Below are positions 16,251 to 59,453 of a DNA stretch of 64,000 nt, piece after piece. The translations under genes and the position numbers were made by a program. Under the pieces are notes generated by a model. It was not told where the DNA came from. It worked only from the letters and a program-made list of their open reading frames with translations, and searched no databases. The stretch comes from Candidatus Methylaffinis lahnbergensis. GTDB lineage: Bacteria; Pseudomonadota; Alphaproteobacteria; Rhizobiales; Beijerinckiaceae. Location of the stretch: the NCBI GenBank assembly GCA_002890675.1, contig PEFW01000001.1:39610-103609 (forward strand), read 5' to 3'. How positions within the stretch are numbered: the first letter of the stretch is position 1; each line of letters begins with the position of its first letter.

Positions 16251-16470
16251 GATGCTGTTGAAAAACTCTGTTTTCGGCGATGAGCCATAATTTGTAGAGC
16301 CGTGGGCTGGAGAATCGAAAAAAGATTTGGGGGGACGCGGAAGTTGACGTTGAAGTAGCAGGCGACCACCGTAGCCGCATTGTGGTTGGCATTGAGCACC
16401 GATTTTCGCTCAGAATGTCATTTGGACGAAATTTTACTGCAATCCGTTTTCGGAGTTTTTCAACAGTATC
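16251..16470. mobile_element. 220-bp MITE-like element with 18-bp terminal inverted repeats (IS1182-like ends)
   Basis: GATGCTGTTGAAAAACTC (16251-16268) and GAGTTTTTCAACAGTATC (16453-16470) are 17/18 complementary. CACC flanks both sides. No transposase. Confidence 0.7.
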
Positions 16471-16564
16471 CACCCATTGCTGGAATTCAAACTAGGGCGA
16501 TGTTCCCTTACTTGACGGATACGCCCGTTCATGTTTAAGGTTGTTCCGACAGGCCGGCGCTATA

Positions 16565-17419
16565 TTATGTGTAGTAATTCAATTTAGTATCTGGAGCCAT
16601 GAAGAATTGCGCCTCAGCAAAGTTCCACTCGCAACAAAATCCAGTCTCCCGTTGCTCTTCCAACATATCCAAATACGTGATCTTTCCGTAGAGAAAAATA
16701 TATCCTTCGCCGTCCATCGCGTCGTTAATATCGCACTCAGTTCCATCGAAAAAGATAGGATTACTCCACGGGCTACCGCTTCCAATGGCGTTCCCGCTTG
16801 GGATTTTGATGCTGTCCGGTTCCATCTCCGGCAAGTACCTATTTCGCCAATAATGGCACTTACCGTTGATCCCATTGACTATCGCCGGAGTTCGTCCAAA
16901 ATTCCTGAATACGAGCGCAATTTGTTTGTTGCGGATTCCCCCCTCCCTAAGGGCTACGTTGCGCTCCCTAAGCAATTCATAATCAATGAACACGTAAGCG
17001 CGCTCGATATTGCGAAGAGAATCAGCGGATTGCTTGGCAGCTTCGGCAGCGGCGTTAGCGGCTCTAGCCGCTTTGTTGGTGACGCAGACGGTAAAGCACA
17101 ACGCGATGGCTTGAAGAATACCAACGAAGACCAAGAGACTGTTAAAAATCAGGGACCGCCCATTTTCCGCCGCCTGATTCTCGCTATTTTTCTTGAGTTC
17201 AGCGGTTATGGCATCTGTGTTTGGGGGGTTCTGCATTTCGATGATAAGCGGCGCGGCTGGCGTTCCACGTTCATGATCGGTGGCTGTTTGATCGTGATCA
17301 GCGGGCTTTTGCTGATTTGGGCTAGCGACTTTTCCAGCACCTGGACTTGGTCGCTTTGATGCCGAACTTTCTGGAATTGAGATCAAGATCGCGGCAAGAA
17401 GTGCGATTGCTTTCAACAT
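16565..17419 (-). CDS. Uncharacterised exported/membrane-anchored protein (IS passenger)
   Basis: Signal-like N-terminus, one TM segment, AANAAAEAAKQSAD coiled region, then ERAYVF...FRNFGRTPA...YGKITYLD. Its ATG overlaps the transposase stop. Confidence 0.75.
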   Translation of the reverse strand: MLKAIALLAAILISIPESSASKRPSPGAGKVASPNQQKPADHDQTATDHERGTPAAPLIIEMQNPPNTDAITAELKKNSENQAAENGRSLIFNSLLVFVGILQAIALCFTVCVTNKAARAANAAAEAAKQSADSLRNIERAYVFIDYELLRERNVALREGGIRNKQIALVFRNFGRTPAIVNGINGKCHYWRNRYLPEMEPDSIKIPSGNAIGSGSPWSNPIFFDGTECDINDAMDGEGYIFLYGKITYLDMLEEQRETGFCCEWNFAEAQFFMAPDTKLNYYT

Positions 17420-42879: not shown

Positions 42880-43160
42880 GGGATTGTTGTAGCGGCGCCG
42901 GTAAAGACAATGTTCCCGGCGAGGATAACCAAATAAGGCTTATCGAGCGTCCCAAATGCCGCGCGGCCGGACAGCCAGCCGTCGAGATTTGCCACGGCAA
43001 CGACGCGCGGGTCAATGGCGCCGGCCTCCGCCGTCGCAACCCGCCCCCAAAGGAAAAGCCAATCCGTCCGCGCAAGTCCGCGTTGGCGTAGGTATTGAGC
43101 CGGTCGATCGCCGTTAATGCTTTTTTGGCTTGGCGAAGGACTCTGCGATCGCCGACCCGC
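42880..43160 (-). pseudogene. Alpha/beta-hydrolase (PAF-acetylhydrolase-like) fragment
   Basis: RGRIGFSFGG nucleophile elbow, frameshift, then VATAEAGAIDPRVVAVANLDGW...LDKPYL. No start codon. Confidence 0.55.
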
Positions 43161-43209
43161 AAAGTGGGGTTGAATGCTTCGGCTGACGAAAGAGAACACT
43201 TCTAACGTG

Positions 43210-43404: not shown

Positions 43405-45114
43405 ATGGAATCCCGGTACGCACTATTTGCCTTGTATGCGCTCGGCGCGGCTGTGCTGGCGGCGTCTCTCGCGAAATTGAAGGCGAAGCTGGAGTTGACG
43501 AAGGCGACGCAGTGGTCGCTGGCAGGGAACGTCTGGATCGCGCGACGGATAGCGTCGCTTATCCCGTTCTACGATTATGATGAAGAGCAGTTCTTCCGCA
43601 CGGACAGTCCGCCGGACGAGATCGCCGCGCGCCGCCGCGCCGGATTCATGCGCCTCTCCAATCTCTGCCGTGAACAATTCGCAAAGACGGACCAGTTCAC
43701 GGCCGAGGTCAAGGACAGCATTTCCGACCTTCAATTCACCGAAGCCTATCGGGCGCCGTTCCAATTCCGCCGCTTGGTCCGCGAATACCTCGACGCCGGC
43801 GCGGTCGTCCTGTCGTCGTCCGGAGTGACTCTCACCGATCTGGACGGCAATTGCTTCTACGATCTGACCGGCTCCTACGGCGTCAACGTCTTCGGCAATG
43901 ATTTCTACAAGGAGTGCATAGAACGGGGCTGTCAACGCGTGCGCGAACTCGGCCCGGTCCTCGGCAGCTATCATCCGGCGATCGCCTACAACGTCAAACG
44001 TCTCAAAGAGATTTCCGGACAGGATGAAGTGTCGTTTCACATGTCCGGAACGGAGGCGGTCATGCAGGCGGTGCGGCTCGCGCGCTACCACACCCGCCGG
44101 TCTCATCTGGTGCGGTTCTGCGGCGCCTATCACGGATGGTGGGGCGACGTCCAACCGGGCGTCGGCAACCCCGTGCCGGCGCATGAAACCTATACTTTGA
44201 AAGAGATGTCCCGCGACACGTTGCGCGTGCTGCGCAGTCGCCGCGACATTGCGTGCGTCCTTGTCAATCCGTTGCAGGCGCTCCATCCGAATGCGGCCGC
44301 GCCTTCGGATTCCTCGCTGGTCGATGGCGCCCGAAGCTCCCACTTCGACAAAGAAGCGTATCGTGTTTGGCTGCAGCGCCTGCGCGCGGTCTGCACAGAG
44401 CGCAAGATAGTGCTGATTTTCGACGAGGTCTTCAGCGGCTTCCGCCTCGCGCTCGGCGGGGCGCAAGAATATTTCGGCGTTCGAGCCGACATTGTCACGT
44501 ACGGGAAGACTCTCGCGGGCGGCCTCCCGATAGGAGTGGTCTGCGGCCGCAGGGACCTGATGAAGCGCTACCGCGACGATCGCCCGGTGGATGTCTGCTT
44601 TGCCCGCGGGACTTTCAACTCCCATCCCTATGTCATGGGGACTATGCACGAGTTCTTGGAGCGGATCGATAGCCCGAAAATCCGTGAGTTGTACCTTAAT
44701 GTGGATCCGGTGTGGAATGGCCGGGCGGACCGGTTCAACCAGCGCATGCACGACGAGGGCCTACCCGTGCAGATAGCTAATATTTCGTCTATTTGGAGTG
44801 TCTTTTTCACGCAGCCGTCGCGATACAACTGGATGTTTCAATACTACCTGCGCGCCGAAGGATTGGCGCTGAGTTGGACTGGAACGGGGCGCGTCATCTT
44901 CAGTTTGAATTACACGGATGCCGACTTCGAAGCAGTCACGAATCGCTACATGGCCGCTGGCAAGGCAATGCAGCAGGACGGTTGGTGGTGGTCCGATCCC
45001 TTGGCGACCAACAAATCAATCAAGCGCCATATACAGCGCGAGATGATCGCCCACCGTTTCATAAGGAATCTTCATCGCTCCGGCGACCGGTCGATGCCAG
45101 AGTCGCAATCCTAG
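43405..45114 (+). CDS. Class III PLP aminotransferase (GSA-aminomutase-like) with an N-terminal hydrophobic extension
   Basis: FYDLTGSYGVN, SFHMSGTEAVMQAVRLAR, YHGWW, LIFDEVFSGFR, IVTYGKTLAGGLP (PLP Lys), GTFNSHP; 569 aa. Confidence 0.88.
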   Translation: MESRYALFALYALGAAVLAASLAKLKAKLELTKATQWSLAGNVWIARRIASLIPFYDYDEEQFFRTDSPPDEIAARRRAGFMRLSNLCREQFAKTDQFTAEVKDSISDLQFTEAYRAPFQFRRLVREYLDAGAVVLSSSGVTLTDLDGNCFYDLTGSYGVNVFGNDFYKECIERGCQRVRELGPVLGSYHPAIAYNVKRLKEISGQDEVSFHMSGTEAVMQAVRLARYHTRRSHLVRFCGAYHGWWGDVQPGVGNPVPAHETYTLKEMSRDTLRVLRSRRDIACVLVNPLQALHPNAAAPSDSSLVDGARSSHFDKEAYRVWLQRLRAVCTERKIVLIFDEVFSGFRLALGGAQEYFGVRADIVTYGKTLAGGLPIGVVCGRRDLMKRYRDDRPVDVCFARGTFNSHPYVMGTMHEFLERIDSPKIRELYLNVDPVWNGRADRFNQRMHDEGLPVQIANISSIWSVFFTQPSRYNWMFQYYLRAEGLALSWTGTGRVIFSLNYTDADFEAVTNRYMAAGKAMQQDGWWWSDPLATNKSIKRHIQREMIAHRFIRNLHRSGDRSMPESQS

Positions 45115-45129
45115 CCGCATAAATGCCGT

Positions 45130-47760
45130 TCAGGTGTCATGGAGTCGATGCCTGTCGGAAGACTGGAGCATGTTCGTCAAAGCCCGCGAGGTTCCGCTCC
45201 GGACTATGTGGTCGCGCTCCGCATCCACTTGGTCGAGCAAAGACCGCAGATGTTCGGCGGTCCGGTCAGCCCCCTCGCCTTGGAACAGATCCACGTGCCA
45301 GCCGGGGACCCGGTGAACGAAAAACCTGCCCTTGACGAGATCGGACCAGCCCATCTTCGGGTCGGCAAAACGGGTCACGACATGGTCGCTTTGCAACACC
45401 ACCACGTTGCCAACCGATGCCGATGCCTGGTAGCGGAAGCACGCTTCTTCGAGATTGGACAGGAACCACTGGTTGGCCCAGTCATCAATGACCAGCTTCG
45501 CCTGGTTGAGCTTTGCCCGGCTGATGAGGTACAGTGCGGCGGCCAAGTCCATAATCCTGCTCTGGCGCACCAGTTTGTAGGATACAAGAAACTCCACCAG
45601 CGTCTGCTTACCGCTTAAAAGGAGTCCGCATTTATGCTCAAGTGAGTGCAACCGGTTGGACCAGCGGAACAGATAACGCCGGACGAACGGAAGGCGGCGC
45701 TTGCTATAGCCTGGCAGCCAGCTGTCGGCCATCACGACCAGTGGAACCGACTCTCCGGCCTGTCTCAATTGCTGCGCCGCTACATAGGCGATGACTCCCG
45801 CTACACAAAATCCAAATAGGATATAGGGACCGTGCGGCCGCGCCTCGCGGATAAGGCGCACATAATCGGCCGCGATCTCCTCCATGTCGCGGCGGGGCAA
45901 TTCACGAGGATTGCTCGGATCAAACAGCTGAACGCCAAGAAACGGCCGATCCGTTCCAATCCTTCGCGCGAGATTATAATAGATCATCGTATTGTTGATG
46001 GAGATAATTGGCGTCTTGTCGCCGCGCGGTTGAATCTCGACAATGCTCCATGGTTCCAGCGGCGTTTCGATCCTGAACACATGGGCTGTGAACTCTCGCA
46101 CGGTCGGCGCCTGAAAAAGGGTCATGACATTGATTTTGACGCCAAAGGTGCTCGCGACCTTGGTCATGAGCCGCATGGCCATCAAAGAATGCCCGCCGAG
46201 CTCGAAGAAATTCGACGTGAGGTCAATTTCCGGTACTTGAAGGACATCCCGCCAGATCGCCATCATCCTTGTTTCGGCATCGGCCGGCTTTGCGCGAGAC
46301 AATGGACTTGGCGCCGGGGGAGAGAACATGTTTGCAGCCAAATCGCCGCCAGTTTGGCACGGCTCACTCCTATCTCGAACAGGCTGCGCAAAGGTGGACA
46401 ATCTTGCCTTGGGATTGAAAATGGCGAGCTCGAAACATGTCATCAGGAATTCGAGCATGCCTTCGACCGTTGTTCTTTCGTAGAGGCCGGTGTTGAATTC
46501 CACCGCCAGCCGCCAGCCGCTTGGCCAATGGACCAAGAAGAAATTGAGATCGTAGAGCGAGCCAGCGGACAGCGAAGGTTGTCCCGTGAGTTCGAAGCCG
46601 CCGTAACTTCTGTGTTCCATGACATCGCGCAACACATTGAAATCGATACAGATCAGCGGCGTGCGTTTGGGATCGCGCGGGGGATTGAGAAGTTCGACCA
46701 ATCTGTGGAACGGCATGTGGGGGTGGATCAATGCCTCTTGAATTGTTCCGTTCACCCGGGCCAGGAATTCCTCGAAGGTTGGGTCTTTCGACGCATCGAA
46801 CCTCAGCACCAGATTATTGAGAAAGACACCGATCATGTTCTCAAGATCCGGATCGTCGCGTCCGGCGATCTGGGTCCCGAATATGACGTCCGTGCGGCCG
46901 CTGTAGCGGTGCAGCATCGCCGCAGTCACGGCGCAGCCAAAACTGAACAATGTAAGATTGTGCTTGCGCGCGGCTTCTTCCAATTTGTCGCCGAGCGCCA
47001 ACGGCATCATGACCGCGAGAATCTCTCCGCCGTGGTTTGGTTGAGAGGGGCGCTCACGATCTGGACAAATTTCGAAATATGGCGCTCCCGCCAGCTTGTT
47101 TTTCCAATAAGCGGTCTCCGCCTCAAAGCTGCTGCTGGCGAAATATTCCTTCTGCCAGAGGCAATAGTCGCCATATTGCAGCGGCGGCTCCGGAAGATCG
47201 TGAGGTCGCTTGGCGTCGAGCGCCGCGGCGATTGTGCCAAACTCATGGGCGAGATTACGAATCGACCAGCCATCGAAGACAATCTGATGGACAGTCACGA
47301 GCAAGACCCCATGATCGGCGGACAGGCGCAGCAAGGTCGCCCGGATCAGCGGCAATTGTCCAATGTCGAACGGCACGTGCGCCTCGCGGCGGCCCAACGC
47401 AATGGCTTCATCGGGCCGCTTTTCCTCGGGAATGACGGTCAAATCGACAACGGACAAATGGAAATCGAGGTGGCTGGCTACCTCCTGCATGGGTTCGCCG
47501 TCCTTATCGATGAACCTCGTGCGCAGGATCTCGTGACGGTCGACGATCGTCTGAAAGGCTTGTTCGATCGTCGAAGCGTCGAATCTCCCCTTGAGCTCCC
47601 AACGCAGGGCGATGTTGAGAACCGAACCTCCGGGGTTTAGCGCATGGATGAACCAGCATCGCTGCTGCGACGACGACAAGGGAAATAACAGTTCTTCACG
47701 CGGCTTCGTCTCCGAACCAGGCAAGCTAGGAACGCCCTCCATAATCATCTCGATTGTCAT
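45130..47760 (-). CDS. NRPS terminal protein: non-canonical C - T - Cys-type TE, no A domain
   Basis: C motifs LSSSQQRCW, RHEILRT, VHQIVFDG; T motif FFELGGHSL; TE motifs PYILFGFCVAG, VMADSW, VPGWH. Confidence 0.9.
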   Translation of the reverse strand: MTIEMIMEGVPSLPGSETKPREELLFPLSSSQQRCWFIHALNPGGSVLNIALRWELKGRFDASTIEQAFQTIVDRHEILRTRFIDKDGEPMQEVASHLDFHLSVVDLTVIPEEKRPDEAIALGRREAHVPFDIGQLPLIRATLLRLSADHGVLLVTVHQIVFDGWSIRNLAHEFGTIAAALDAKRPHDLPEPPLQYGDYCLWQKEYFASSSFEAETAYWKNKLAGAPYFEICPDRERPSQPNHGGEILAVMMPLALGDKLEEAARKHNLTLFSFGCAVTAAMLHRYSGRTDVIFGTQIAGRDDPDLENMIGVFLNNLVLRFDASKDPTFEEFLARVNGTIQEALIHPHMPFHRLVELLNPPRDPKRTPLICIDFNVLRDVMEHRSYGGFELTGQPSLSAGSLYDLNFFLVHWPSGWRLAVEFNTGLYERTTVEGMLEFLMTCFELAIFNPKARLSTFAQPVRDRSEPCQTGGDLAANMFSPPAPSPLSRAKPADAETRMMAIWRDVLQVPEIDLTSNFFELGGHSLMAMRLMTKVASTFGVKINVMTLFQAPTVREFTAHVFRIETPLEPWSIVEIQPRGDKTPIISINNTMIYYNLARRIGTDRPFLGVQLFDPSNPRELPRRDMEEIAADYVRLIREARPHGPYILFGFCVAGVIAYVAAQQLRQAGESVPLVVMADSWLPGYSKRRLPFVRRYLFRWSNRLHSLEHKCGLLLSGKQTLVEFLVSYKLVRQSRIMDLAAALYLISRAKLNQAKLVIDDWANQWFLSNLEEACFRYQASASVGNVVVLQSDHVVTRFADPKMGWSDLVKGRFFVHRVPGWHVDLFQGEGADRTAEHLRSLLDQVDAERDHIVRSGTSRALTNMLQSSDRHRLHDT

Positions 47761-50700
47761 CTCGATGCACCCGAGCGGCGCCTGAAACTTTGCAATGAAG
47801 GCGCCGTATTGACTGGCGCGAGCATCGATTCCTCCGGCAGGTCATTCGCGGCCCGCGCCAATTCGGCGATAGTCGGATGCCGCATCAGCTGGGCCGCACC
47901 GAGGTCGAGGCCCTGTTCCCGCATCCGCGCCGCGATGCGGAACAGGTCGATGGAATCCGCCCCTAGCGCGAAAAAATTATCGTGTATGCCAATCTCGCTA
48001 GTTCGCAGAACTTCGCCCCAAATCGCGGCGAGCTTGGCTTCGAGGGGTGTCTGGGGTGGCGCAATGACTCGCTCCGGTAACGCCTGTGCGGGATCGGGTC
48101 GCGGCAGCGCCTTGCGGTCGATCTTGCCGTTCTGTGTACGGGGTAGCGCGTCGAGACGCAAGATCTGCGCTGGGACCATGTAATCCGGCAATTCCTCGCG
48201 CAATTTCGTTCGCAGCCCGCCCACGCTCTCGATGGTGCCATCGGGCGCCGCGATATAGCCGACTAGATCGTCGCCGTGCAAACCGGCGGCCGTTTCCGGG
48301 CGGCCGGAAACGCGCCGCAGCGCATCTTCGACATCGCCAAGTTCAATGCGAAAACCGCGCAACTTGATTTGGCTATCGGCGCGTCCGAGCAGTTCGAAGC
48401 GCCCGTTCGCTAGATAGCGTGCGCGATCGCCAGTGCGATAGAGGCGCCCGTTCGTGCCGCTGGAAAACGGATTTTCCGTGAAGCTTTGCTTGGTGAGCGC
48501 TTGATTTTTATGATATCCTCGCGCTAGTCCCGCGCCGGCGATGCAAAGCTCTCCAGCGGCCCCGATTGCCGCCGTATTTCCCGCCGCGTCAAGGATATAC
48601 ATCCTTGTGTTCGCGATCGGACGGCCGAAATCGATAGCGCCGCCGTTTTGCCGTTCCGCCAGCGACCAGATCGTCGTTTCGGTCGGTCCGTACATGTTCC
48701 ACAGTTCGCCCGATCCGAGATCCTGGGCGAGTTTCCGGTCGAGCGTCTCGCCGCCGCACAGGATTTTGAGCCCCTTCGGATTGAGCCCCGCTTCCAGCAA
48801 TAGCCGCCATAGGGCCGGGGTGGCCTGCATCATCGTCGTCCCTGTGCGGATGATCAGCGCGGCGAGGGAAAACGGGTCCATGACATCGGCCCGGCTCGCG
48901 ATCGCGAGCTCGGCGCCGGCCGTCAGCGGCAGGAAGATTTCAAGAGCGGCAATGTCGAAGCATGGCGTCGTTACGGCGAGGAAGACATCGGCGGCGCCAA
49001 TGCCGGGCGACTGCCGCATCGCGGTCAGGAGGTTCACGACCGGGCGATGCTCGATATCGATGCCCTTTGGCCGGCCCGTCGAACCGGAGGTGAAGATGCG
49101 ATAAGCGAGATCTTCCTGGCGGACGCGCGGAAGAGGCGGCAGTTGTTCTTCGCCCAAGTCCGCGCTGGTTTCTCCAATGCCGATGCAAACCGGGATTGCC
49201 GCCTTGATGCCGTCCTCGAGCGTTGCCGACGTCAAAGCGATCCTAACATCGGCCTCGGAGACGATCGCGTGGATGCGCGCGGGCGGATAGATCGGATCGA
49301 GCGGAACATAGGCGCCGCCCGCCTTGAGGACGGCGAGCATGGCGACAACCAGCTCCGCCGAGCGGTCGAGATAAATCGCGACCGGCGTTTCGCGGGCGAC
49401 CCCGGCGGAAAGCAAGCGCCACGCCACACGATCCGCGCGCATGATAAGTTCGCGATAGGTGAGGGTAGTGTCTTCGAAGCGGACCGCGACGGCGTCTGGA
49501 GTAGCCGCCGCCTGCAAATCGATCAACTCGTGAATGGCGAATTCCGGGATGGGATAATCCGGCCCCGCAAGAGCGGAGCGCAGCGTGTTCTCCTCCGCCC
49601 GCGTCAGCATAGGCAGCCGCAAGGCCTCCCTGTCCATGTCGCCGGCGACGGCTTCGAGCAGCGTCCGGTAATGGCCGATCCAACGCGCGATGGTCGAGCT
49701 GTCGAACAGATCTGTGCTGTAATCGCAATCAATGATAAGGCCGCTGTCTTCCGCGACGACATTGAAGAACAAATCGAAATTCACAAAACGCTTGGGATTG
49801 GCGTCGGTCGAGACGGCGAGATCCTGGAAGGGAAGATTTTGCCCGATCCGCTCCAAATTGAACTGCGCTTCGATCAAGGGGAGCCGGTTGATCTCCCGCG
49901 GAATGTCGAGCGCCCGGACGAGGGACCCGAAAGTGTAGCTTTGATGATCGGCCGCATCGAGAAGAAGCTGCTGGGTCTTGCGCGCGGCTTCGAGGAAAGT
50001 GACGCCGTTTGGGAACTCGCCTCGCAACGGCAGGAAGTTGACGCAATGGCCAACAAGAGGCCCTTCGCCGTGCAAACTCTGCCCCGCGGTCGGAATGCCG
50101 GCGACGACGCCGGTTTGTCCGCTCAAGCGGGCAAGCAGCAATTGATAGGCGGTCAACAGCACGGCAAACAAGGTACAGCCATTGCGTGCGGCCGCTTGCT
50201 TCACGCGTTCGTACAGGGAAGCGTCGATTGTCCCGCGCAGCGTATCCCCGCGAAAGCTCTTAAGCGCCGGGCGCGGACGATCGAGCGGCAGGGCCAAGGG
50301 CTCCGGCGGTTGCGCGAATTGTTGCAGCCAATAGGCCTCCGCCTCCGGCTGCACCGCGCCGTGCCGTGCTGCATAGTCGACGAAGCTGTGGGCTTGCGGC
50401 AGGCTTGCGGCGGCTCCGCTCCGGCGGGCCGAATAGAGCGCCCCAAGTTCTTCCAAAAGGATGTTCATCGACCAGCCATCGCAGACGATGTGATGGGCGG
50501 TCAAGATCAGCATATGGCGGTCTTGACCATGGTCCGGCACCAAGGTGAAGCGAATGAGCGGTCCATTGACCAAATCGAAGGGAGTCGAGGCCTCGTTTTC
50601 GATGACATCGGCAAGATGGGTATCAGGAGGCTCCCCCTCGCCGCGCGCGATGGTGAAGGCTAGCGGTGCCGCGGGCATCACGGTAAAGCCATCGCCTACC

Positions 50701-53700
50701 GGCGCGAATCGGATGCGAAGCGCTTCGTGGCGCTGCACCAAATCGCGCGCCGCTTTCCGCAGCGCGTGGGTGTCGAGTTTGCCACGCAAATCGAGAGTAA
50801 CCGATTCGTTGAAGGCGCACGAAGCGGCGTCACCGAGTTGGGCGCTGAGCCAAATTTCCATTTGGCTTTCGGTCAACTGGCCTTGGCGCGCTCCGGCTGA
50901 ATCCGCCGTCCGTCCGAACAAGCCCGCGGCCATCATCTGTGCCGAGGCCGCATCGAAAACCGCGACGATTTTCGCGAGATCGGCATCGTCGTGGGCGGTC
51001 GTCAGGAAACACGGGAAGCCTTCCCGGATATGAATGCCCTGTTCGCGCATCAGGTAATAAAAGAGCGATGCGAAATGATATTCGGCGGGGAATTTGACGA
51101 AGAAGATCGAGCCGAAATGATGAATTTCGGCCGGCATGCCGTGGCGCTCGAAGACGGCGTCAAGGTCGTCCACGAGACGTCCGGTACGCTCGGACAAATT
51201 TTCCAGCAGGCTTGGCCCGGCTGCTTTTAGATGCTTCAAAACCGCGGCGGTGGCGGCGAGGGTCAGCGGGTGGCGCACGAACGTGCCGGCGAAGAAGGTC
51301 ACTCCAACGGTCGGATAGGAATCGTCGCCATATTGCCACATGCCGCCGTCGAGAGCGTCCATGAACGCGGCCTTGCCGGCCAAGATGCCGATGGGCATGC
51401 CGCCGCCGGCCACCTTGCCGTAGGTGACAAGATCGGCGCGGATGCCGAACAAGGCTTGTACGCCGCCAGGATGGACGCGGAAGCCAGTAACGATTTCGTC
51501 AAAGATTAAGGCGGTCCCCGCCTTCGCGGTCAGGTCGCGCAACGCCTCCAAGAATTGCCGGGGACGGAAGCCCGGCCGCCGGCTCTGCACGGGTTCGACG
51601 AGGACCGCCGCCAATTCATGGACGTGCTGTTCGAGCCAGGCGAGGCTCTCGGGAGTTGCATAGTCCAGGACGGTGATGTTGGCGATGGATTCGGCCGGAA
51701 TACCCGGAGCGATTGGAAATACCCGCGCAACCCCCTCGCGAACGCCGCCGCGCGCCAAAACTTCGTCGAATTGGCCGTGGTAATCGCCGGCGAAATAGAC
51801 GATGCGGTTGCGTCCGGTCACCGTTCGCGCGATCCGCATCGCCGCCATCACTGCTTCTGATCCGGTGTTGCAAAAGGTCATCCGCTCATTGCCCGTGAGA
51901 TCGCAAAGGAGCTTCGCGACCTCGCCGGCGAGAGGTGTTTGCGGACCCAATTCAAAGCCCTGGTCGATTTGCGCGATGAGCGCTTCACGAACGAATTCGG
52001 GTGCGTGGCCGAAGGCAGTCTGACCAAAGCCGTTCAAGAGATCGATATAAATGTTGCCATCGACATCCCAAAGTTTCGAGCCTTCGGAGCGGACGGTGAC
52101 GATCGGGTAAACGATCTCCTTCCATTCTGGATCGAATCCCGAGGCGACCCGGGGATCGGCAAGGACCGCGCGCGATGCCTGGGTCATGTCCTTGGAACCG
52201 CGCGTGCGCGTTGTGTAGCGTTCGATCAGATCGGCGACGAAACGGCGTTGCCCCGCGTCGAGACCGCCATCGCGCGCTTGCGAGAATGGCTTGAAGGGGC
52301 CAAAGGCCTCGCCGGGTTTTTTCTCCAGAAGCGACTTTGCTTGAAGCGGCGCAGCTGCTTGCGGGGGTTGCCGGACGGCTGGGGCCGCGGCAGCGGCCGC
52401 GGTGACCAAAGGTGCCGCGCCGGCAATCTGCCGCAAGGTATCGAGCTGCCGGTTTATGAGGTCGCTCATGCTGGCGAGCTGCGCCGCCATGACTTGCTCG
52501 ATCCCTTGTCCCGGCAAGGATGCAGCCGCAAAACGGGGTGCGGGGCTTGCGGCTGAAGGAGGCAGAGTGGAACCGGCGTCCACCTGGCTTGTCGCGGCCA
52601 TGGCGGGCTCCGGCTCAAATTCCGTCGCCGTTTGGTTCAGATGCTCGGCCACCGCATCGACCGTTCCAAGTTCGCCCATCATCTGGCGGAAGCTGACGGC
52701 GACATTGAAGCGGGTCTTGATCGCTTGGCTTGCCTGCGTGAGGAACAATGAATCGAAGCCAAGTTCGAGGAAACTTGTCCCGCGCGGCGCGATCGCTACA
52801 TCGATGCCCGAAAGATTTTCGAGCAAAGCCGCCAGTTCGGCCCGGATCGCTGCTTGGCGGTCGGGCATCTCGGGTTGTTGCGCAATTTGGGCAGTGGGGG
52901 TCGGCTGCAATGTTTCGTTCGCCATGGCGGTAATGTGACTTCCTTCAAAAGAAATGACCGCAGCGGGGCTGGCGCTTGTGGAATCTATAAAATAGCGCTT
53001 GCGCTGGAGAGGATAAGTAGGGAGAACGACTCGCCGTCGCGGTGCACCCTCGTGCAACGCATGCCAAACTGGCGCTGCGCCAGCGGCCCACAAGCGCCCG
53101 AGCGTATCGAGAAAGACCGCGTCTGAGTCGCGTTCCTCGGACGCGTCGGGGAGCGACGCGCCGATCAGAGGCGCCCCGCGCATCGCGCCGTTTTGCCGGG
53201 CGAGGCTTGTGAGCGTCCGCCCTGGGCCGACCTCGATCAGGATTGGCGATAATTGTTCGGCGAGGCAGGCGAGTGCCGCGGCGTAGCGCACCGTCTCGCG
53301 GCAATGCCGCGCCCAATAAAGCGGGTCCGTCGCCTGACCGGCCGTTATCCACGTTCCCGACATGGTGGAGACGTAAGGAATGCTGGGGGGCTTGAGAGGA
53401 ATCCGCGCCAAGATCTCTGCTAGCGGTTCGATCACCGGATCGACCATCGCCGAATGAAATGCATGCGAGGTCCGCAACCGCCGCCAGCCGACGCCGCGGG
53501 CGGTTAGCTTCGCCTCGAAGGCGTCGATTGCTGGATGCGGCCCGGAAACAACGCAGACGGCACTGGCGTTGACCGCCGCGATCGAGAGATCGCCGGGCAG
53601 GCAGGCCTTAAGTTCGGGCTCCGCCAGCATGACCGCGAGCATCGCTCCTTCCGGCAGCTCCTGCATCATGGCGCCACGCGCGGCGACTACCTCCAAGGCA

Positions 53701-55637
53701 TCTTCGAGCCGCATCACGCCAGCGAGCGTCGCGGCGACGAATTCGCCGACGCTGTGGCCTAGCATGGCGGCGGGCTCAAACCCAAGACTTCGCCATAACG
53801 CCGCGACGGAGAAGTTGACGCTGAACAGAGCTGGTTGCGCGAGCGCGGTCGCCTGAAGTCGCGGCCCAACCTCCAGAGGCTCGCCGAAAAGGACCTTGCG
53901 CAGGTCGAGGCCAAGCATAGGTTCCAGAATCGAAGCACATTGGTCGATCGTGCGCGCGACAACCGGATAACGCTGGTAAAGGCCCTGACCCATGCCAGGA
54001 TATTGCGCGCCCTGGCCAGGAAACAGGAATGCAAGCTTTGGCGGGGACGCGGCCGCCGTCTCGGCTTTGCCGGAGCCGCCGAGCCTCTCGATCAAGCCGC
54101 GCCTGTCCTTGACGACAGCGGCGAACCGCCTGGCGAAACCGCGCCTCCCGGTTTGCAAGGTGAAGGCGATGTCGCCGATGCTCTGTTCCGCGTGCGCTTC
54201 GACATGTGCCGCGAGGCGGCCGCGGGCTTCCGCCAAGGCATTGTCGTCGCGGGCCGACAGGACAACGAGATGCGCGGCCTCGGCATCGGGGACGGCAGCG
54301 GCGGCGTCCGGGAGCGGCGCTTCCTCGACGATCAGATGGACATTGGTTCCGCCTACGCCCGCGGCATTGACGCCTGCAATGCGCGGTTTGGCGCCGCGCG
54401 GCCAAGGCCGCAACTCGGCATTGACGAAGAACGGGCTCTCCTCAAGGCCGAGTTTCGGGTTTGGGGTCTTGAAATGAAGCGTCGCAGGCAGGCATTCATG
54501 TTCGAGCGCAAGAATGGTTTTGATTAACGCGGCGGCGCCGGACGCGATATCGAGATGGCCGATGTTCGTTTTAACCGTGCCGATCGCGCAAAATCCCTTG
54601 CGATCGGTGGTCGCGCCAAACGCCTTGGCGAGGCCGGCGATTTCAATCGGATCGCCAAGCGGGGTCGCGGTGCCGTGGCACTCCACATAGGAAATGCAGT
54701 CGGCGCTGATATCCGCCACGGCATGGGCGAGGGCGATTGCCTTGGCCTGGCCATCGCTGCTCGGGGCCGTATAGCCGACTTTCCTGGCCCCGTCGTTGTT
54801 GACGGCGCCGCCCCGAATGACCGCGCGGATCGGGTCGCCGTCGGCCAAGGCGGCGTCGAGACGCTTCAACAGAACCACGCCGGCGCCGCTGCCGAAAACC
54901 GTCCCCGCCGCTTCGGCGTCGAAGGTGCGGCAATGACCATCCGGCGAAACCATGCCGCCTTCCTGATAGAGATAGCCGCGCTTCTGCGGGAAGGTGATCG
55001 ATACGCCACCCGCAAGCGCCATATCGGCGCGATAATCGAGAAGGCATTGGCACGCTTCCGCGACGGCAAGAAGCGAGGTCGAACACGCCGATTGCACGGT
55101 AAAGGCGGGACCCCGCAGATCGAGCTTGTAAGCGGTCCGCGTCGCGAGGAAATCCGCTCCATTGCCGACGAGCGTCGGAAATTCGCCGACTTGATAATTG
55201 CCGGTCATATTTTCGAGCCGCTGCCGGTCGTTCAGCAAATTGTAGAGAAGGTAGGTGTTGAAGCTGCTCCCGGCGTAGACCGCGATCTCCCCGGGAAAAA
55301 CAGCCGGGTCGTAACCGGCGCTTTCCAGAGCCTCCCAGGCGATTTCGAGAAAGACTCTTTGTTGTGGGTCGGTCAGCTCCGCCTCGCGCGGCAGGAAGTT
55401 GAAGAAGCCGGCGTCAAACAGCTCGACTCCCTCCAAAATCGATCTTGCGCGCACATAGCCAGGCTGGTTTTGCACCGAACGGCCGTAGGCGTCTTCCAGC
55501 TCTTCCGGAGGAAAATGGGTGATGGACTCCACGCCGCGCCGGAGATTGTCCCAAAATGCCTCGAGCGATGGCGCGCCGGGGAAGCGGCCGGCCATGCCGA
55601 TCACGGCTATCGCGGGAAGGGTATCTTGGGCGGACAT
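47757..55637 (-). CDS. Hybrid PKS-NRPS: KS-AT-ACP-AMT-C-A-T (2626 aa)
   Basis: KS QSACSTSL / HGTATPLGDPIE / NIGHL; AT GHSVGE and HAFHS; ACP LGFDSL; AMT FDEIVTGFR / TYGKVAGGG; C HHIVCDGWS; A FTSGSTGRPKG, YGPTE, YRTGD, NGKIDRK; T LGADSI. ATG55637 overlaps the upstream TGA. Confidence 0.95.
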   Translation of the reverse strand: MSAQDTLPAIAVIGMAGRFPGAPSLEAFWDNLRRGVESITHFPPEELEDAYGRSVQNQPGYVRARSILEGVELFDAGFFNFLPREAELTDPQQRVFLEIAWEALESAGYDPAVFPGEIAVYAGSSFNTYLLYNLLNDRQRLENMTGNYQVGEFPTLVGNGADFLATRTAYKLDLRGPAFTVQSACSTSLLAVAEACQCLLDYRADMALAGGVSITFPQKRGYLYQEGGMVSPDGHCRTFDAEAAGTVFGSGAGVVLLKRLDAALADGDPIRAVIRGGAVNNDGARKVGYTAPSSDGQAKAIALAHAVADISADCISYVECHGTATPLGDPIEIAGLAKAFGATTDRKGFCAIGTVKTNIGHLDIASGAAALIKTILALEHECLPATLHFKTPNPKLGLEESPFFVNAELRPWPRGAKPRIAGVNAAGVGGTNVHLIVEEAPLPDAAAAVPDAEAAHLVVLSARDDNALAEARGRLAAHVEAHAEQSIGDIAFTLQTGRRGFARRFAAVVKDRRGLIERLGGSGKAETAAASPPKLAFLFPGQGAQYPGMGQGLYQRYPVVARTIDQCASILEPMLGLDLRKVLFGEPLEVGPRLQATALAQPALFSVNFSVAALWRSLGFEPAAMLGHSVGEFVAATLAGVMRLEDALEVVAARGAMMQELPEGAMLAVMLAEPELKACLPGDLSIAAVNASAVCVVSGPHPAIDAFEAKLTARGVGWRRLRTSHAFHSAMVDPVIEPLAEILARIPLKPPSIPYVSTMSGTWITAGQATDPLYWARHCRETVRYAAALACLAEQLSPILIEVGPGRTLTSLARQNGAMRGAPLIGASLPDASEERDSDAVFLDTLGRLWAAGAAPVWHALHEGAPRRRVVLPTYPLQRKRYFIDSTSASPAAVISFEGSHITAMANETLQPTPTAQIAQQPEMPDRQAAIRAELAALLENLSGIDVAIAPRGTSFLELGFDSLFLTQASQAIKTRFNVAVSFRQMMGELGTVDAVAEHLNQTATEFEPEPAMAATSQVDAGSTLPPSAASPAPRFAAASLPGQGIEQVMAAQLASMSDLINRQLDTLRQIAGAAPLVTAAAAAAPAVRQPPQAAAPLQAKSLLEKKPGEAFGPFKPFSQARDGGLDAGQRRFVADLIERYTTRTRGSKDMTQASRAVLADPRVASGFDPEWKEIVYPIVTVRSEGSKLWDVDGNIYIDLLNGFGQTAFGHAPEFVREALIAQIDQGFELGPQTPLAGEVAKLLCDLTGNERMTFCNTGSEAVMAAMRIARTVTGRNRIVYFAGDYHGQFDEVLARGGVREGVARVFPIAPGIPAESIANITVLDYATPESLAWLEQHVHELAAVLVEPVQSRRPGFRPRQFLEALRDLTAKAGTALIFDEIVTGFRVHPGGVQALFGIRADLVTYGKVAGGGMPIGILAGKAAFMDALDGGMWQYGDDSYPTVGVTFFAGTFVRHPLTLAATAAVLKHLKAAGPSLLENLSERTGRLVDDLDAVFERHGMPAEIHHFGSIFFVKFPAEYHFASLFYYLMREQGIHIREGFPCFLTTAHDDADLAKIVAVFDAASAQMMAAGLFGRTADSAGARQGQLTESQMEIWLSAQLGDAASCAFNESVTLDLRGKLDTHALRKAARDLVQRHEALRIRFAPVGDGFTVMPAAPLAFTIARGEGEPPDTHLADVIENEASTPFDLVNGPLIRFTLVPDHGQDRHMLILTAHHIVCDGWSMNILLEELGALYSARRSGAAASLPQAHSFVDYAARHGAVQPEAEAYWLQQFAQPPEPLALPLDRPRPALKSFRGDTLRGTIDASLYERVKQAAARNGCTLFAVLLTAYQLLLARLSGQTGVVAGIPTAGQSLHGEGPLVGHCVNFLPLRGEFPNGVTFLEAARKTQQLLLDAADHQSYTFGSLVRALDIPREINRLPLIEAQFNLERIGQNLPFQDLAVSTDANPKRFVNFDLFFNVVAEDSGLIIDCDYSTDLFDSSTIARWIGHYRTLLEAVAGDMDREALRLPMLTRAEENTLRSALAGPDYPIPEFAIHELIDLQAAATPDAVAVRFEDTTLTYRELIMRADRVAWRLLSAGVARETPVAIYLDRSAELVVAMLAVLKAGGAYVPLDPIYPPARIHAIVSEADVRIALTSATLEDGIKAAIPVCIGIGETSADLGEEQLPPLPRVRQEDLAYRIFTSGSTGRPKGIDIEHRPVVNLLTAMRQSPGIGAADVFLAVTTPCFDIAALEIFLPLTAGAELAIASRADVMDPFSLAALIIRTGTTMMQATPALWRLLLEAGLNPKGLKILCGGETLDRKLAQDLGSGELWNMYGPTETTIWSLAERQNGGAIDFGRPIANTRMYILDAAGNTAAIGAAGELCIAGAGLARGYHKNQALTKQSFTENPFSSGTNGRLYRTGDRARYLANGRFELLGRADSQIKLRGFRIELGDVEDALRRVSGRPETAAGLHGDDLVGYIAAPDGTIESVGGLRTKLREELPDYMVPAQILRLDALPRTQNGKIDRKALPRPDPAQALPERVIAPPQTPLEAKLAAIWGEVLRTSEIGIHDNFFALGADSIDLFRIAARMREQGLDLGAAQLMRHPTIAELARAANDLPEESMLAPVNTAPSLQSFRRRSGASR

Positions 55638-57523
55638 CAATTGCCTGTGGCTGGGTTTGGGTGGACGCTGGGCGAGCGGGCGCGGTTCACGCGCGCGCGC
55701 CGTTGGCGGGCCGCATTCGCCGCGACACCAGCGGTGGCGTCGCCCCTTTGCGCGCCCGATAGCCGGCCATGCAGAAGCCGGATCGTCGGCAGATCGAATA
55801 AATCCTGGATCGAAATCTGACCCGGGAAAAGCCGCTCGATGTCGGCATGCACGCCAAGGAGCTGGAGCGAGCCGCCGCCGAGGTCGAAAAAGTTTTGGTC
55901 GACATCGACGGTTTCCAGCTGAAGGTGACGGCGCCACAAATCGATCAGCATGGCCTCGACCGGGGTGGTGAACTGGGTGTTCGAAGGGTTTTGTGCCCGC
56001 GCATCCGCTGCCTGGCGACTGAGGGCGAGGCGGTCGATCTTACCCGTCGAGGTTAGCGGAAAAGCATCGACCGTCTCCAGCCGCGCCGGGATCATGTGCG
56101 GCGGCAAATAGCGGTTGGCGGCCTCACGCAAGGCGGCGCTGGAAAGGGAAGCGCCAGGGAGCGGAACAACGAAGGCGACCAGATGTTTGGCGCCATTCGT
56201 CAAGGCGCAAGCGACGACGGCAATGTCGGTGACCGGGAGGTGGCGCCGCAGCACGTTTTCGACATGCTCGGGCTCGATCCTGCGGCCGTTCACCTTGATC
56301 TGATTGTCCATCCGTCCGAGAAAATGCAGCAAGCCTGTCTCGTCGCGCCGGACGAGATCGCCGGTGCGATAGAGCCGTTGCGGAGGATCTTGCGCGTTAG
56401 GGTCCGCGATGAATTTTTGTTGCGTGAGATCGGGGGCGTTAAGATAACCGAGCGCCAGCCCCCCTCCCCCGACATAGAGCTGCCCCGCCAAGCCTTCGGG
56501 GACGGGGCGCATTTCGTCATCGAGAATCCGCAAAATCGTGCCCGCGATGGGCCGACCGATGGGGACCGCCGCATCGGCCGGCAAATCCGGCGGCGCGGTG
56601 AAGGTCGTGGTGAAGGTCGTGTTCTCGGTTGGCCCGTAAACCGAGATGAAATGACCCGATTTAAGGAGCTGCGCCGCCTTGGCGACATGCGCCGGAGACA
56701 TGACATCGCCGCCCGAGACTAGATAGCGAAGCTCGCGCAGAGGAGCGGGACGCTGGTCGATCATAAGGTTGAAGAGGCCGCTGGTTAGAAACAGGGTCGT
56801 TACGCCTTGTTCCTTGATCGCGGCGGCGATCGCGTCGAGGCTGAGCAAGCCTGCTTCTGGAATCACCAGCTCGGCGCCATTGAGCAGCGCGCCCCAAATT
56901 TCGAAAATCGATGCGTCGAACGTCAAGGGCGATGCTTGCAGGAAGATTTGATCGTCCGAAAACCGCATATAGCCGGGATTTTTGACCAGCCGGACAATGG
57001 CGCGATGCGGGATAACGACGCCTTTCGGCTCCCCCGTGGAGCCGGAGGTGAACATGACGCAGGCGGGGTCCGAGCCCGCGACTTTCGCGGCCTCGCCGCG
57101 GCGGCCGGCGTGCCCCGCCAATGGCGCGGCGTCAACATCGATCACCGGCACCGCCCCGGTGAGTTGGGGAAAGCGCTTCAACGTTGCACCGTTCGATATG
57201 ACACACGACAATTTGTGCCGCTCTATGATATCGAGAATGCCTTGTGGCGGGCTGCTCGGGTCGAGCGGCACGAACGCCCCGCCTGCTTTCAAAACCGCCA
57301 GGAAGGATGTGATGGTGGATAAGGAGCGGTCGAGGAGGATGCCGGCGAGCGCGCCTTTTTCAATTTCAGCGGCGGTGAGCCGGTCGCGGAGGGCATCGGT
57401 CCGGGCGTCGAGGCCGGCGTAGGTCAACCGTTGCGTGCCACTCCTGAGGGCGAAAAACCCAGGTGTTTCCGTGGTCTGAATTTGAAACCATTGGGGCACG
57501 TTGTCGAAATCGTTTCGGAACAT
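55637..57523 (-). CDS. NRPS loading didomain A-T
   Basis: LTYAGLD, MFTSGSTGEPKGV, FDASIFE, YGPTENT, YRTGD, TGKIDR; T motif FFDLGGGSL. GAGG precedes ATG57523. Confidence 0.93.
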   Translation of the reverse strand: MFRNDFDNVPQWFQIQTTETPGFFALRSGTQRLTYAGLDARTDALRDRLTAAEIEKGALAGILLDRSLSTITSFLAVLKAGGAFVPLDPSSPPQGILDIIERHKLSCVISNGATLKRFPQLTGAVPVIDVDAAPLAGHAGRRGEAAKVAGSDPACVMFTSGSTGEPKGVVIPHRAIVRLVKNPGYMRFSDDQIFLQASPLTFDASIFEIWGALLNGAELVIPEAGLLSLDAIAAAIKEQGVTTLFLTSGLFNLMIDQRPAPLRELRYLVSGGDVMSPAHVAKAAQLLKSGHFISVYGPTENTTFTTTFTAPPDLPADAAVPIGRPIAGTILRILDDEMRPVPEGLAGQLYVGGGGLALGYLNAPDLTQQKFIADPNAQDPPQRLYRTGDLVRRDETGLLHFLGRMDNQIKVNGRRIEPEHVENVLRRHLPVTDIAVVACALTNGAKHLVAFVVPLPGASLSSAALREAANRYLPPHMIPARLETVDAFPLTSTGKIDRLALSRQAADARAQNPSNTQFTTPVEAMLIDLWRRHLQLETVDVDQNFFDLGGGSLQLLGVHADIERLFPGQISIQDLFDLPTIRLLHGRLSGAQRGDATAGVAANAARQRRARVNRARSPSVHPNPATGN

Positions 57524-57630
57524 CGAATCGCCTCAAAAATACGCCGCCTTCAAAAAACGATTGTCATCCTACACTAAGGCAGGAGGTTCTTGTACCCTCA
57601 AATGGGCTAGGAGGTCACGAAAATTGACTG

Positions 57631-57663
57631 TTAATTTCATTAATACTTTTAATGTATGGTTAA
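57631..57663 (-). promoter_or_regulatory. CtrA-type box TTAA-N7-TTAA within four phased TTAA half-sites, in the AT-rich NRPS promoter
   Basis: TTAA at 57631, 57640, 57649 and 57660. The minus strand of 57649-57663 reads TTAACCATACATTAA. Confidence 0.6.
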
Positions 57664-57790
57664 TTTCAATACTCATTTCAATATTTATCGCGTTAGAATT
57701 GAGGCTAGTATTGCGGTTTTTTATTTTTTAGAAGTTATGAATCTATATAAAAGTCAAGATGGAAATATATTTTATATATGCTATTATTAG

Positions 57791-58109
57791 GTAGCACATC
57801 AAATGTCCGCTTCTGAGTTTTCTGTTTCTCTGTGGGCGGCGTTGGCAAGCGATCGATGATCCTTTCCGCCCCAAGCGCCGCAAAAGCGTCGCGCAACCGG
57901 CGAAAATGTCGTTCGCTCATCCCTCAGCTCTGCGCTTGACGGAACCTTTGGCCAGCTCCCCCAATAGCTCGGACGCATCCACGCCGCTCAGCCGTATCGC
58001 CCGATGCACCGAAATCACATCCGTAATCAAGGACATGCGAACCTCCGGCGTCATCCGATCCTCCGGTCCAAAACCGGATGCCACCTAACCCGGACATATC
58101 ATTTGCTAC
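57791..58109 (-). mobile_element. Internally deleted IS (IS481-related / IS1202-type) retaining both IRs and an HTH fragment
   Basis: GTAGCACATCAAATGTCCG (57791-57809) and CGGACATATCATTTGCTAC (58091-58109) are 16/19 complementary. Inside: ASELLG...MSERHFRRLRDAFAALGAERIIDR. Confidence 0.7.
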
Positions 58110-58276
58110 GGATAAGCCGCCGGATGGTTCACAATCGTGACGGCATGAATTAAAGTCAAGCGTGTCAAGCCGTCATTCCGCCTGAAACGGGCCAATACCT
58201 TCGCATGAATCGGGCCAGTAGCGGCTAGAATGTTTCAAATAGACAGGAACCTTTCGTGGCGCTGGCGATAGAATCA

Positions 58277-58789
58277 ATGAAAACAACGGGCGCGCGGCGC
58301 CTTTGCGAGCTGACTCTCGCCAGTATCTGGCTCTTGGCGAGCGGCCCGGGCGCCGTTTGCCAAGGCGTCGTGAAATCCAAGCATGGCGATTGGGAACTGC
58401 GCTGCGAGACGCCGCCTGGCGCCGCAAAGGAGCAATGCGCGCTCTTGCAGAGCGTTGCCGCCGAAGATAAGCCAAACATCAATCTGACGGTTATCGTTCT
58501 CAAGACAGCGGATGGGAAGAGCCGCCTTTTGCGGGTCATTGCGCCGCTTGGGGTGCTGCTTCCTTCCGGATTGGGGCTTAAGATCGACGATACCGATGTT
58601 GGACGCGCTGGTTTCGTCCGCTGTCTTCCGACCGGATGCGTAGCCGAGGTGGTCATGGAGGAAAAATTGATCGACCAAATGAAAACCGGCCAGAAGGCCG
58701 TCTTCATCATTTTTCAGACTCCGGAAGAAGGAACCGGCATACCGCTAGCCCTGGCCGGGTTTAAGGAAGGGTACGATGCCTTGCCGTGA
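58277..58789 (+). CDS. Invasion-associated locus B (IalB) family protein
   Basis: HGDWELRCETP...EQCALLQSV, APLGVLLPSGLGLKID, FVRCLPTGC. Confidence 0.9.
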   Translation: MKTTGARRLCELTLASIWLLASGPGAVCQGVVKSKHGDWELRCETPPGAAKEQCALLQSVAAEDKPNINLTVIVLKTADGKSRLLRVIAPLGVLLPSGLGLKIDDTDVGRAGFVRCLPTGCVAEVVMEEKLIDQMKTGQKAVFIIFQTPEEGTGIPLALAGFKEGYDALP

Positions 58790-58829
58790 ATTCGGCCAAA
58801 ATTCGAGGTGGCGGCCAGTGCCGATCCGC

Positions 58830-59453
58830 ATGGCAAAATCCATCCTGGCCGCGCCGGTAGTGTTGGGACTGGCTGGCTGCGGCGGCCATCTTGGCACTTT
58901 CTTCGACACGCCCGAACCCCAAGGGGGCAACTCTCAGGTGCTCGCTATGTTGCTGGGATTTAAAAGGAACGACGCTCCGGCGGCGCCTGGAACACAGGTT
59001 CGGCATATTTTCTGCCCCGAAGTCCTTATTCTCGAAGGCACCGCGGCAAGCCAGGCTTATGCCGGAACGCCCCCTTCAAGCGCCAATCTCCGCTATCAGT
59101 ACGCGCTCACCGATACCGCGCGGGAATGCTCGCTTGATGGCGATCAACTCGCGATCAAAATTGGTGTCGCGGGCAGAGTGCTGCTCGGACCCAAGGGCAG
59201 CCCCGGCGGTTTTAGCGTGCCGGTGCGCATGGCCGTTCTTCACGAACGCGATAATCAGCCTATCGTAAGCAAGCTTTATCGCGCCACGGTGACGGTGGCC
59301 GCCAGCGAGACCCAAGCGGACTTCACCATCGTCTCCGAACCGCTCCGCGTGCCCTTCGTCCAGGACCACGCCGAAGACGAATATACGATAAAGGTTGGCA
59401 TCGACGAAGGCGCGGGCACCGATAAGCCCGCCGGCAAAGGTGCCAAACCTTGA
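58830..59453 (+). CDS. Conserved Hyphomicrobiales lipoprotein
   Basis: Lipobox LGLAGC; CPEVLILEGTA...LRYQYALTDTARECS...GVAGRVLLGP. Confidence 0.75.
   Translation: MAKSILAAPVVLGLAGCGGHLGTFFDTPEPQGGNSQVLAMLLGFKRNDAPAAPGTQVRHIFCPEVLILEGTAASQAYAGTPPSSANLRYQYALTDTARECSLDGDQLAIKIGVAGRVLLGPKGSPGGFSVPVRMAVLHERDNQPIVSKLYRATVTVAASETQADFTIVSEPLRVPFVQDHAEDEYTIKVGIDEGAGTDKPAGKGAKP

Follow-up and report, generated by a model that had tools for sequence, protein, structure and literature searches.

A hybrid NRPS-PKS cluster of Candidatus Methylaffinis lahnbergensis, a member of a widespread orphan family with predicted diaminoacyl-glycine chemistry

The window analysed in this work, i.e., the whole stretch of 64,000 nucleotides from Candidatus Methylaffinis lahnbergensis, carries at 45130-57523 on the minus strand a hybrid cluster joining a nonribosomal peptide synthetase to a polyketide synthase (NRPS-PKS), made up of three open reading frames (ORFs), numbered g1, g2 and g3; window coordinates are used throughout. 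We estimate at roughly 55% the probability that this cluster is functional, is maintained by selection and belongs to a widespread family of orphan NRPS-PKS lines, with a diaminoacyl chain that would be coupled to glycine and released by a terminal protein that does not elongate it. For the core of the line, the best-supported reading is that an amino-acid starter would be extended by malonate, β-aminated and joined to Gly. By itself, the cluster is an ordinary orphan cluster, real and intact. Its unusual part is the release end, which lacks an adenylation (A) domain and combines a condensation (C) domain without the catalytic His with an AB3403-like thioesterase (TE) having a Cys nucleophile. 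The window belongs to contig C1 of a draft genome of 3.7 Mb, and its closest database relatives are labelled Methylocella sp. or Beijerinckiaceae.

Organization and predicted chemistry of the core

The first gene, g1 (55637-57523, 628 aa), encodes a stand-alone loading protein in which Pfam recognized an A domain (A1, AMP-binding and AMP-binding_C; approximately aa 14-495, 57484-56039) and a thiolation (T) domain (T1, PP-binding; aa 526-584, 55948-55772) with Ser552 in the motif LGGGS, followed by a C-terminal tail of about 40 aa. The product of g2 (47757-55637, 2626 aa) includes ketosynthase (KS, 55613-54471), acyltransferase (AT, 54029-53184), acyl carrier protein (ACP, approximately 52850-52653), aminotransferase (AMT, 52106-51021), C1 (50879-49581), A2 (49517-48123) and T2 (48035-47850) domains, matched in Pfam by ketoacyl-synt, Acyl_transf_1, PP-binding, Aminotran_3, Condensation, AMP-binding and PP-binding. 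The A-less third protein, g3 (45130-47760, 876 aa), consists of C2 (Condensation, 47685-46393), T3 (PP-binding, 46263-46078) and TE (Thioesterase, approximately 45987-45271). Pfam E-values across the domains of the three proteins ranged from 1e-10 to 1e-85. The genes overlap each other: in TGATG at 55639-55635, the A at 55637 is common to the stop codon of g1 and the start codon of g2, and ATGA at 47760-47757 joins the stop codon of g2 with the start codon of g3. An earlier note made from the sequence had described three coupled genes with the order A-T / KS-AT-ACP-AMT-C-A-T / C-T-TE, and the ORFs, the overlaps and the order of Pfam domains all agree with this description. A GTG start at 55937, which would lengthen g2 and make it overlap g1 further, is unlikely because full-length homologues are only 2615-2645 aa long.

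The motifs named earlier for KS, AT, AMT and C1 were all located in g2 and are intact. These are Cys185, His321 and His361 of KS; GHSVG (Ser629) and HAFH (725-728) of AT; Asp1380, the pyridoxal phosphate (PLP) Asp, and Lys1408, the Schiff-base Lys, of AMT; and HHIVCDG (1715-1721) of C1. The carrier residues are Ser963 in ACP and Ser2562 in T2. Across 107 aligned full-length homologues of g2, the catalytic positions were near-invariant, each being kept in 105-107 of them (gaps account for some of the few exceptions).

The substrate codes DAFFVGVTFK (A1) and DILQLGMIWK (A2), proposed in the same note, were both reproduced; they were read from motif anchors and checked against an HMMER alignment to LgrA, and the Stachelhaus positions rest on these. 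The presence in A1 of D203 and K495, the equivalents of Asp235 and Lys517, indicates that A1 is a putative α-amino-acid-activating domain, and its code appears to be of the aliphatic type. In the PDB, g1 is matched best by A domains for amino acids, LgrA among them. Compared with published codes, the A1 code is nearest to those for Ile/Val and the A2 code is one residue off that for Gly. This Gly code is kept in about 100 of the 107 homologues, with DILQLGMIWK found exactly in 82 and one-position variants in 16 more.

The best solved relative of AMT, a class-III PLP-dependent domain, was the aminotransferase domain of MycA (6KFM, E-value 1.5e-125; also 6KFR/6KFU), whereas HemL and other glutamate-semialdehyde aminomutases gave far weaker matches (about 1e-57). 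For KS-AT, the best solved match was the polyketide synthase 8XJU/8XJY (E-values from 6e-230 to 6e-235), of which a complex with a "peptide synthetase" is also available (8XJZ), and this synthetase was the second-best PDB match of g1. These entries probably represent ClbI and ClbH from the colibactin line, a pair in which the KS is primed with an aminoacyl group, since the neighbouring entry 8XJT is ClbC and the published description corresponds (PMC13691573). For ClbI, an HAFH-type AT, a docking tail for ClbH-T and a ClbH-T:KS complex have been described (PMC13691573).

Based on colinearity and on the MycA and colibactin precedents, we suggest the following pathway. A1 would activate a branched aliphatic L-amino acid of the Val/Ile type and load it onto T1. 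KS would accept this aminoacyl group and condense it with malonyl-ACP, which is expected to be loaded by the HAFH-type AT, giving a γ-amino-β-ketoacyl-ACP. Then, the MycA-type PLP-dependent AMT would convert the β-keto group to an amine, yielding a 3,4-diaminoacyl-ACP, and C1 would join the 3,4-diaminoacyl chain to Gly to form 3,4-diaminoacyl-Gly-S-T2. The third protein would contribute no residue, with C2, devoid of the catalytic His, only passing or presenting the chain. Finally, the AB3403-like TE with its Cys-Asp-His triad would free 3,4-diaminoacyl-glycine as a linear product or a small lactam. The predicted [M+H]+ values are 218.150 (Val) and 232.166 (Ile) for the linear compounds and 200.139 and 214.155, respectively, for the cyclised ones. 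As far as the second carrier domain, this colinear logic is that of the earlier note, and it is strengthened by D203/K495 in A1, the MycA-type AMT (6KFM) and the conserved Gly code of A2.

An orphan family with a variable terminal protein

To define the family, one genome per species was scanned with a profile of the AMT-C1 junction. As a result, at least 563 confirmed loci with the same core were found in species-representative genomes from several phyla; gene order, A1 codes and neighbours were taken from 80 loci kept from this set. The carriers include Acidobacteriota, Bradyrhizobium, Labrys, Paraburkholderia, Nevskia, Solimonas, Eremiobacterota (Vulcanimicrobiota), Binatota and one planctomycete. 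The order is nearly always an A-T gene, then a gene for a protein of 2600-2750 aa, then a gene for a TE-bearing protein; in Paraburkholderia, A-T is fused onto the N-terminal side of the KS protein, giving about 3300 aa. The window cluster fits this family definition, having a Gly-coded g2 orthologue between an amino-acid A-T protein and a TE-bearing protein. Such a minimal architecture is not a rarity: the window cluster is one of many loci in a very large orphan family. The A1 code across the 80 loci was mostly DAFWLGGTFK or DALWLGGTFK, presumably Val-type codes, and sometimes DFWNIGMVHK, which we take to be a Thr code.

The earlier note had recognized no characterised product for this architecture. 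Likewise, our literature searches found no paper with a characterised product for any family member, and NCBIfam returned no specific family for g1, g2 or g3, all matches being far under the cut-off. The carenaemin and flavipulchrin clusters were considered as characterised matches and rejected, as they are fatty-acid-primed or unknown-primed AMT lines with other architectures.

Several genes recur beside the core. A PAF-AH/PETase-like membrane-anchored α/β hydrolase was found near 27 loci, a Cupin_8 protein near 25, an unknown 287-aa protein near 19 and an initiating sugar transferase near 13 of the 80; Sfp-type phosphopantetheinyl transferases (PPTases) and glycosyltransferases were also recurrent. 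Directly upstream of the A-T gene, 12 of the 80 loci carry a gene for a CmlA-like diiron β-hydroxylase (e.g., L009, 6393-7976), which suggests a β-hydroxylated starter in those relatives; this gene is absent from the window.

The terminal protein departs from an ordinary C-T-TE ending, as which it had first been read: its A domain is absent, Gln occupies a catalytic-His position and the thioesterase uses Cys. No AMP-binding match was found in g3 by Pfam, i.e., the cognate A domain of an elongating module is missing. The motif of C2 is HQIVFDG, with Gln159 at the position of the catalytic second His, and does not match the canonical motif HHxxxDG of elongating C domains. T3 has Ser525 (LGGHS), and the TE has the nucleophile Cys652 (GFCVAG), Asp679 and His822 (PGWH). 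The best solved match of T3-TE was AB3403 of Acinetobacter (4ZXH, E-value 5e-23), whose GWCFGG aligns to GFCVAG, Cys on Cys. According to the alignment, Asp679 lies 27 residues past the Cys (VVMAD), at the β6 "position I" common to AB3403 and SrfTE-type domains. Among solved NRPS thioesterases, Cys is found only in SulM, ObiF and AB3403, and in the lactam/lactone formers SulM and ObiF the triad Asp is relocated behind β7, to position II (PMC11298585). As the Asp of g3 is at the ordinary position, its TE is read as not grouping with the formers of four-membered rings. The AlphaFold2 (AF2) model of g3 had a mean predicted local distance difference test (pLDDT) score of 78.6.

Among 105 A-less homologues, the second-His position of C2 was Q in 77, E in 17, H in 10 and R in one, whereas the first His, Asp and Gly of C2, the Ser of T3 and the Cys of TE were invariant (105/105). 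In the C2 tree, the window protein falls into a clade of 20 A-less proteins with 100/100 support, inside which Q, H and E interchange. Terminal-protein variants were scored over context-verified loci. In nine loci, the terminal protein is C-A-T-TE with an intact, Gly-coded A3 possessing all A core motifs, and all nine have HH. Five gammaproteobacterial loci, all with HQ, encode C-A*-T-TE, where an A-sized insert is devoid of motifs A3, A8 and A10 (and, in four of the five, of A7 as well). C-T-TE proteins with HQ, HE or HH make up the alphaproteobacterial clade that includes the window, and some A-less C-T-TE members retain an AMP-binding_C remnant. In Paraburkholderia (L092, L099, L101 and L103-L105), the third protein is a C(HSLVMDG)-TE(Cys) of about 770 aa with neither a Pfam carrier domain nor a carrier Ser, and therefore its thioesterase must act on T2. 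In addition, third genes for C-C-T-TE proteins of about 1300-1370 aa occur in L031, L033, L035 and L053 (Acidobacteriota, Bradyrhizobium and Eremiobacterota), and the third proteins of L046 and L070 are C-C-A-T-TE.

Because HH is found where A3 is intact and of the Gly type, and HQ where A3 is dead or has been deleted, g3 is read as a putative non-elongating release module. Without an aminoacyl acceptor on T3, the catalytic His would be dispensable, and C2 may be kept to hand on or present the chain. The series from intact A3/HH through dead A3/HQ and deleted A3/HQ or HE to HS with no carrier Ser can be viewed as a natural experiment, in which an NRPS module ceases elongation while retaining release.

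The 1375-aa C-A-T-TE protein of M. silvestris BL2 (CP001280; L012, 10001-14128) was considered as an ancestor-like partner of the cluster and rejected, being encoded by a stand-alone gene among unrelated ones; its C domain is 57% identical to C2 of g3 and has the HH motif, and the protein is solitary like AB3403. A search of the representative library with g3 returned only giant multi-C NRPSs and no usable orthologues.

Several points weigh against the proposed chemistry and release. No family member is known to have a characterised product, and the evidence is sequence-based. The code of A1 was matched to published ones by eye and not with a predictor. In the chain itself, an α-amine beside a β-keto thioester could lead to a tetramic-acid-type shunt lactam before amination. 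The accessory hydrolase gene is a pseudogene in this genome, and the pathway may be altered. Furthermore, selection on C2 and T3 is evident from the limitation of this C2 position to Q/E/H and from the invariant Ser of T3, and it would also fit an active C2 whose partner T3 is loaded in trans.

The last point leads to the alternative that g3 is a working elongation module, in which A2 (or A1) would load T3 with Gly in trans and C2, although of the HQ type, would still condense, giving a tripeptide: diaminoacyl-Gly-Gly ([M+H]+ 275.171 or 289.187) or diaminoacyl-Gly-Val/Ile. We regard this as possible, if doubtful. Loss of the second His is tolerated by some C domains. The intact A3 of relatives carries the Gly code of A2, so A2 could have replaced A3; the invariant residues of C2 and T3 and the non-random choice of Q, E or H at the variable position are in line with activity, as is the interchange of the three residues within one fully supported clade. 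However, in no case is HQ paired with a functional A3, and in the gammaproteobacterial clade it invariably goes together with a dead one; the Paraburkholderia proteins, with HS, no carrier Ser and the Cys-TE kept, indicate that release without a third residue is possible in this family. We prefer the reading of g3 as a non-elongating release module. A bolder version of it, which we advance as speculative and rather unlikely, is that HQ-C, T3 and Cys-TE form an undescribed kind of non-elongating NRPS module, a peptide counterpart of KS0, where the His-less C domain would transfer the finished chain on T2 to T3, present as a bare thiol, and TE would close the vicinal-diamine dipeptide to a small N-heterocycle, e.g., a 1,4-diazepane-2,5-dione. 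If both the pass-through module and the N-heterocycle were true, hundreds of soil bacteria would be the source of a new natural-product scaffold.

State of the cluster in this genome and its congeners

Compared with congeners, the ratio of nonsynonymous to synonymous substitution rates (dN/dS) was 0.21-0.25 for g1 and g2 and 0.23-0.40 for g3. With dN/dS of about 0.2, the cluster genes are under purifying selection and are maintained. At the same time, the operon behaves as an accessory, exchangeable unit, as it is absent from the same site in some congeners, lies at a different place in one relative and has a different first gene in another. The genes orf161, orf225 and gcvT/P are kept across the genus with or without the cluster, and the cluster is absent beside them in G016, G012 and G010. 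The more distant relative L011 (CP024846) carries the operon at a different site. In L027 (OY970154.1), g2 is 89% identical to that of the window, the third gene (14434-16986) is an HE-type g3, and the first gene (3603-6530) differs, encoding 975 aa with the Thr-like code DFWNVGMVHK; the starter module seems to have been swapped between congeners.

The hydrolase gene is intact 3' of g3 in the congeners G017 and G004 and in the metagenome-assembled genome (MAG) behind L027, as well as in L020, L021 and L011. In the window genome and in G021, it is reduced to an internal piece of about 100 residues. Here, tblastn recovered this remnant (42897-43195, minus strand) in two parts read in different frames, with 56-72% identity to the hydrolases of L020/L027; in frameshifted form, it covers about 100 of about 430 residues. 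A Sfp-type PPTase is encoded on contig C157 and not near the cluster as in relatives.

These findings bear on a possible decay of the cluster in this lineage, by which it would make no product or shunts only, the hydrolase having been lost and a foreign gene having settled behind g3. The frameshifted hydrolase, shared with G021, the missing cluster at the same site in the three congeners named above and the faster evolution of g3 relative to g2 speak for it. Nevertheless, such decay is improbable in view of 12.4 kb of uninterrupted reading frames with every catalytic residue intact, preserved translational coupling and dN/dS of about 0.2 against several species sharing the loss of the hydrolase; a functional, maintained cluster remains our preferred reading. 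Least probable of all, and very much so, is the formation by the Cys-TE of a strained four-membered β-lactam-type ring through the β-amino group: the Cys nucleophile recalls SulM and ObiF and the chain would contain a β-amino acyl unit, but the carbonyl of that unit would already be spent in the amide to Gly, the Asp stands at position I in β6 instead of position II in β7 (PMC11298585), and the TE is matched best by AB3403 and not by ObiF.

The surroundings of the operon were also inspected. The leader 5' of g1 (57524-57830, minus strand) is non-coding and AT-rich, especially at 57560-57830 against surroundings of 60% GC, and is presumed to contain the operon promoter. A scan of the region upstream of g1 found no sigma-70 consensus on the minus strand, and a terminator scan gave nothing usable. 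Between the operon and gcvT are orf161 (58225-58710, minus strand) and orf225 (58776-59453, plus strand), neither with a Pfam or NCBIfam match; they were rejected as cluster genes, since they adjoin gcvT in genomes without the cluster. On the other side, between g3 and the hydrolase remnant, a class-III aminotransferase of 569 aa with a hydrophobic N-terminus is encoded tail to tail with g3 (43405-45114, plus strand; a longer frame from 43249 gives 621 aa), its end being 15 bp from the stop codon of g3. It is not counted in the pathway because it is absent from this place in G017, G004, G021, L027 and L011, and similar genes are present in the cluster-free congeners G010, G022 and G007.

Elsewhere in the genome, the Cupin_8 and 287-aa proteins, which recur near the cluster in other phyla, have homologues encoded as a pair in a housekeeping setting, adjacent to the gene for a class-I lysyl-tRNA synthetase (G000 C164:24076-25979; L106, 8077-9980), and further Cupin_8 paralogues lie approximately 12 kb upstream of g1 (C1:108700-110900, 5-7 kb past the end of the window). 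Outside the window, the genome also has at least one further type I PKS (C185:32271-34904, a 2528-aa frame) and one additional NRPS-like gene (C112:66355-68052, a 1355-aa frame).

Significance and comparison with known systems

If the prediction is true, the family makes β,γ-diamino acids of the 3-amino-deoxystatine type. Members are very frequent in soil Acidobacteriota, Alpha-, Beta- and Gammaproteobacteria, Eremiobacterota and other groups, so that the annotation of hundreds of clusters would follow from a single solved product. Of the earlier reading as a whole, the layout, the motifs, the codes and the colinear logic up to T2 stand, while its treatment of C-T-TE as an ordinary ending does not.

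At the release end, AB3403 of A. baumannii (4ZXH/4ZXI) resembles g3 in its T-TE with a Cys-Asp(β6)-His triad but is a complete C-A-T-TE protein whose A domain is active; the product of AB3403 is likewise uncharacterised. ObiF and SulM share the Cys nucleophile with the TE of g3 but differ from it in the relocation of the triad Asp to position II.

At the starter end, the step of colibactin assembly by ClbH-ClbI (probably 8XJU/8XJY/8XJZ) is similar in that an NRPS-bound aminoacyl-S-T primes a KS-AT(HAFH)-ACP module; unlike the window line, it has no AMT at this step and belongs to a far larger pathway. Statine-type units, such as isostatine in didemnin, tubuvaline and dolaisoleuine, are built from an amino acid and malonate with a ketoreductase (KR). 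The lines for such units likewise use a Val/Ile-type aminoacyl starter and one malonate on a hybrid KS, but there the β-keto group is reduced to a hydroxyl by KR, and in the window line the AMT domain replaces KR. In the literature searched, 3-amino-deoxystatine-type units were found only as a synthetic building block of protease inhibitors and not as a natural product.

The order KS-AT-ACP-AMT-C-A-T is also that of McyE (microcystin), as cited in the earlier note, and of NdaF. McyE activates D-Glu. It receives a long polyketide (Adda) chain from PKS modules and has an extra terminal C domain, whereas in the window line the gene upstream of g2 encodes just A-T, the last domain of g2 is T2 and its A code is that for Gly. 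MycA and ItuA of Bacillus (subunit A of the mycosubtilin and iturin synthetases) possess the same KS-AT-ACP-AMT-C-A-T block, with the AMT of MycA as the nearest solved relative, and carry out β-amination of an ACP-bound β-ketoacyl chain ahead of NRPS condensation, as predicted here. These lines are primed with a fatty acid through an acyl-ligase/ACP and continue to heptapeptide lipopeptides; in contrast, the window line takes an α-amino-acid starter from its own A-T protein, would form a vicinal diamine and then add only Gly, with no further peptide modules. The window line can be classed as an aminating PKS-NRPS module of the MycA type whose primer is an amino acid, and it is one member of a large orphan family rather than a singular design.

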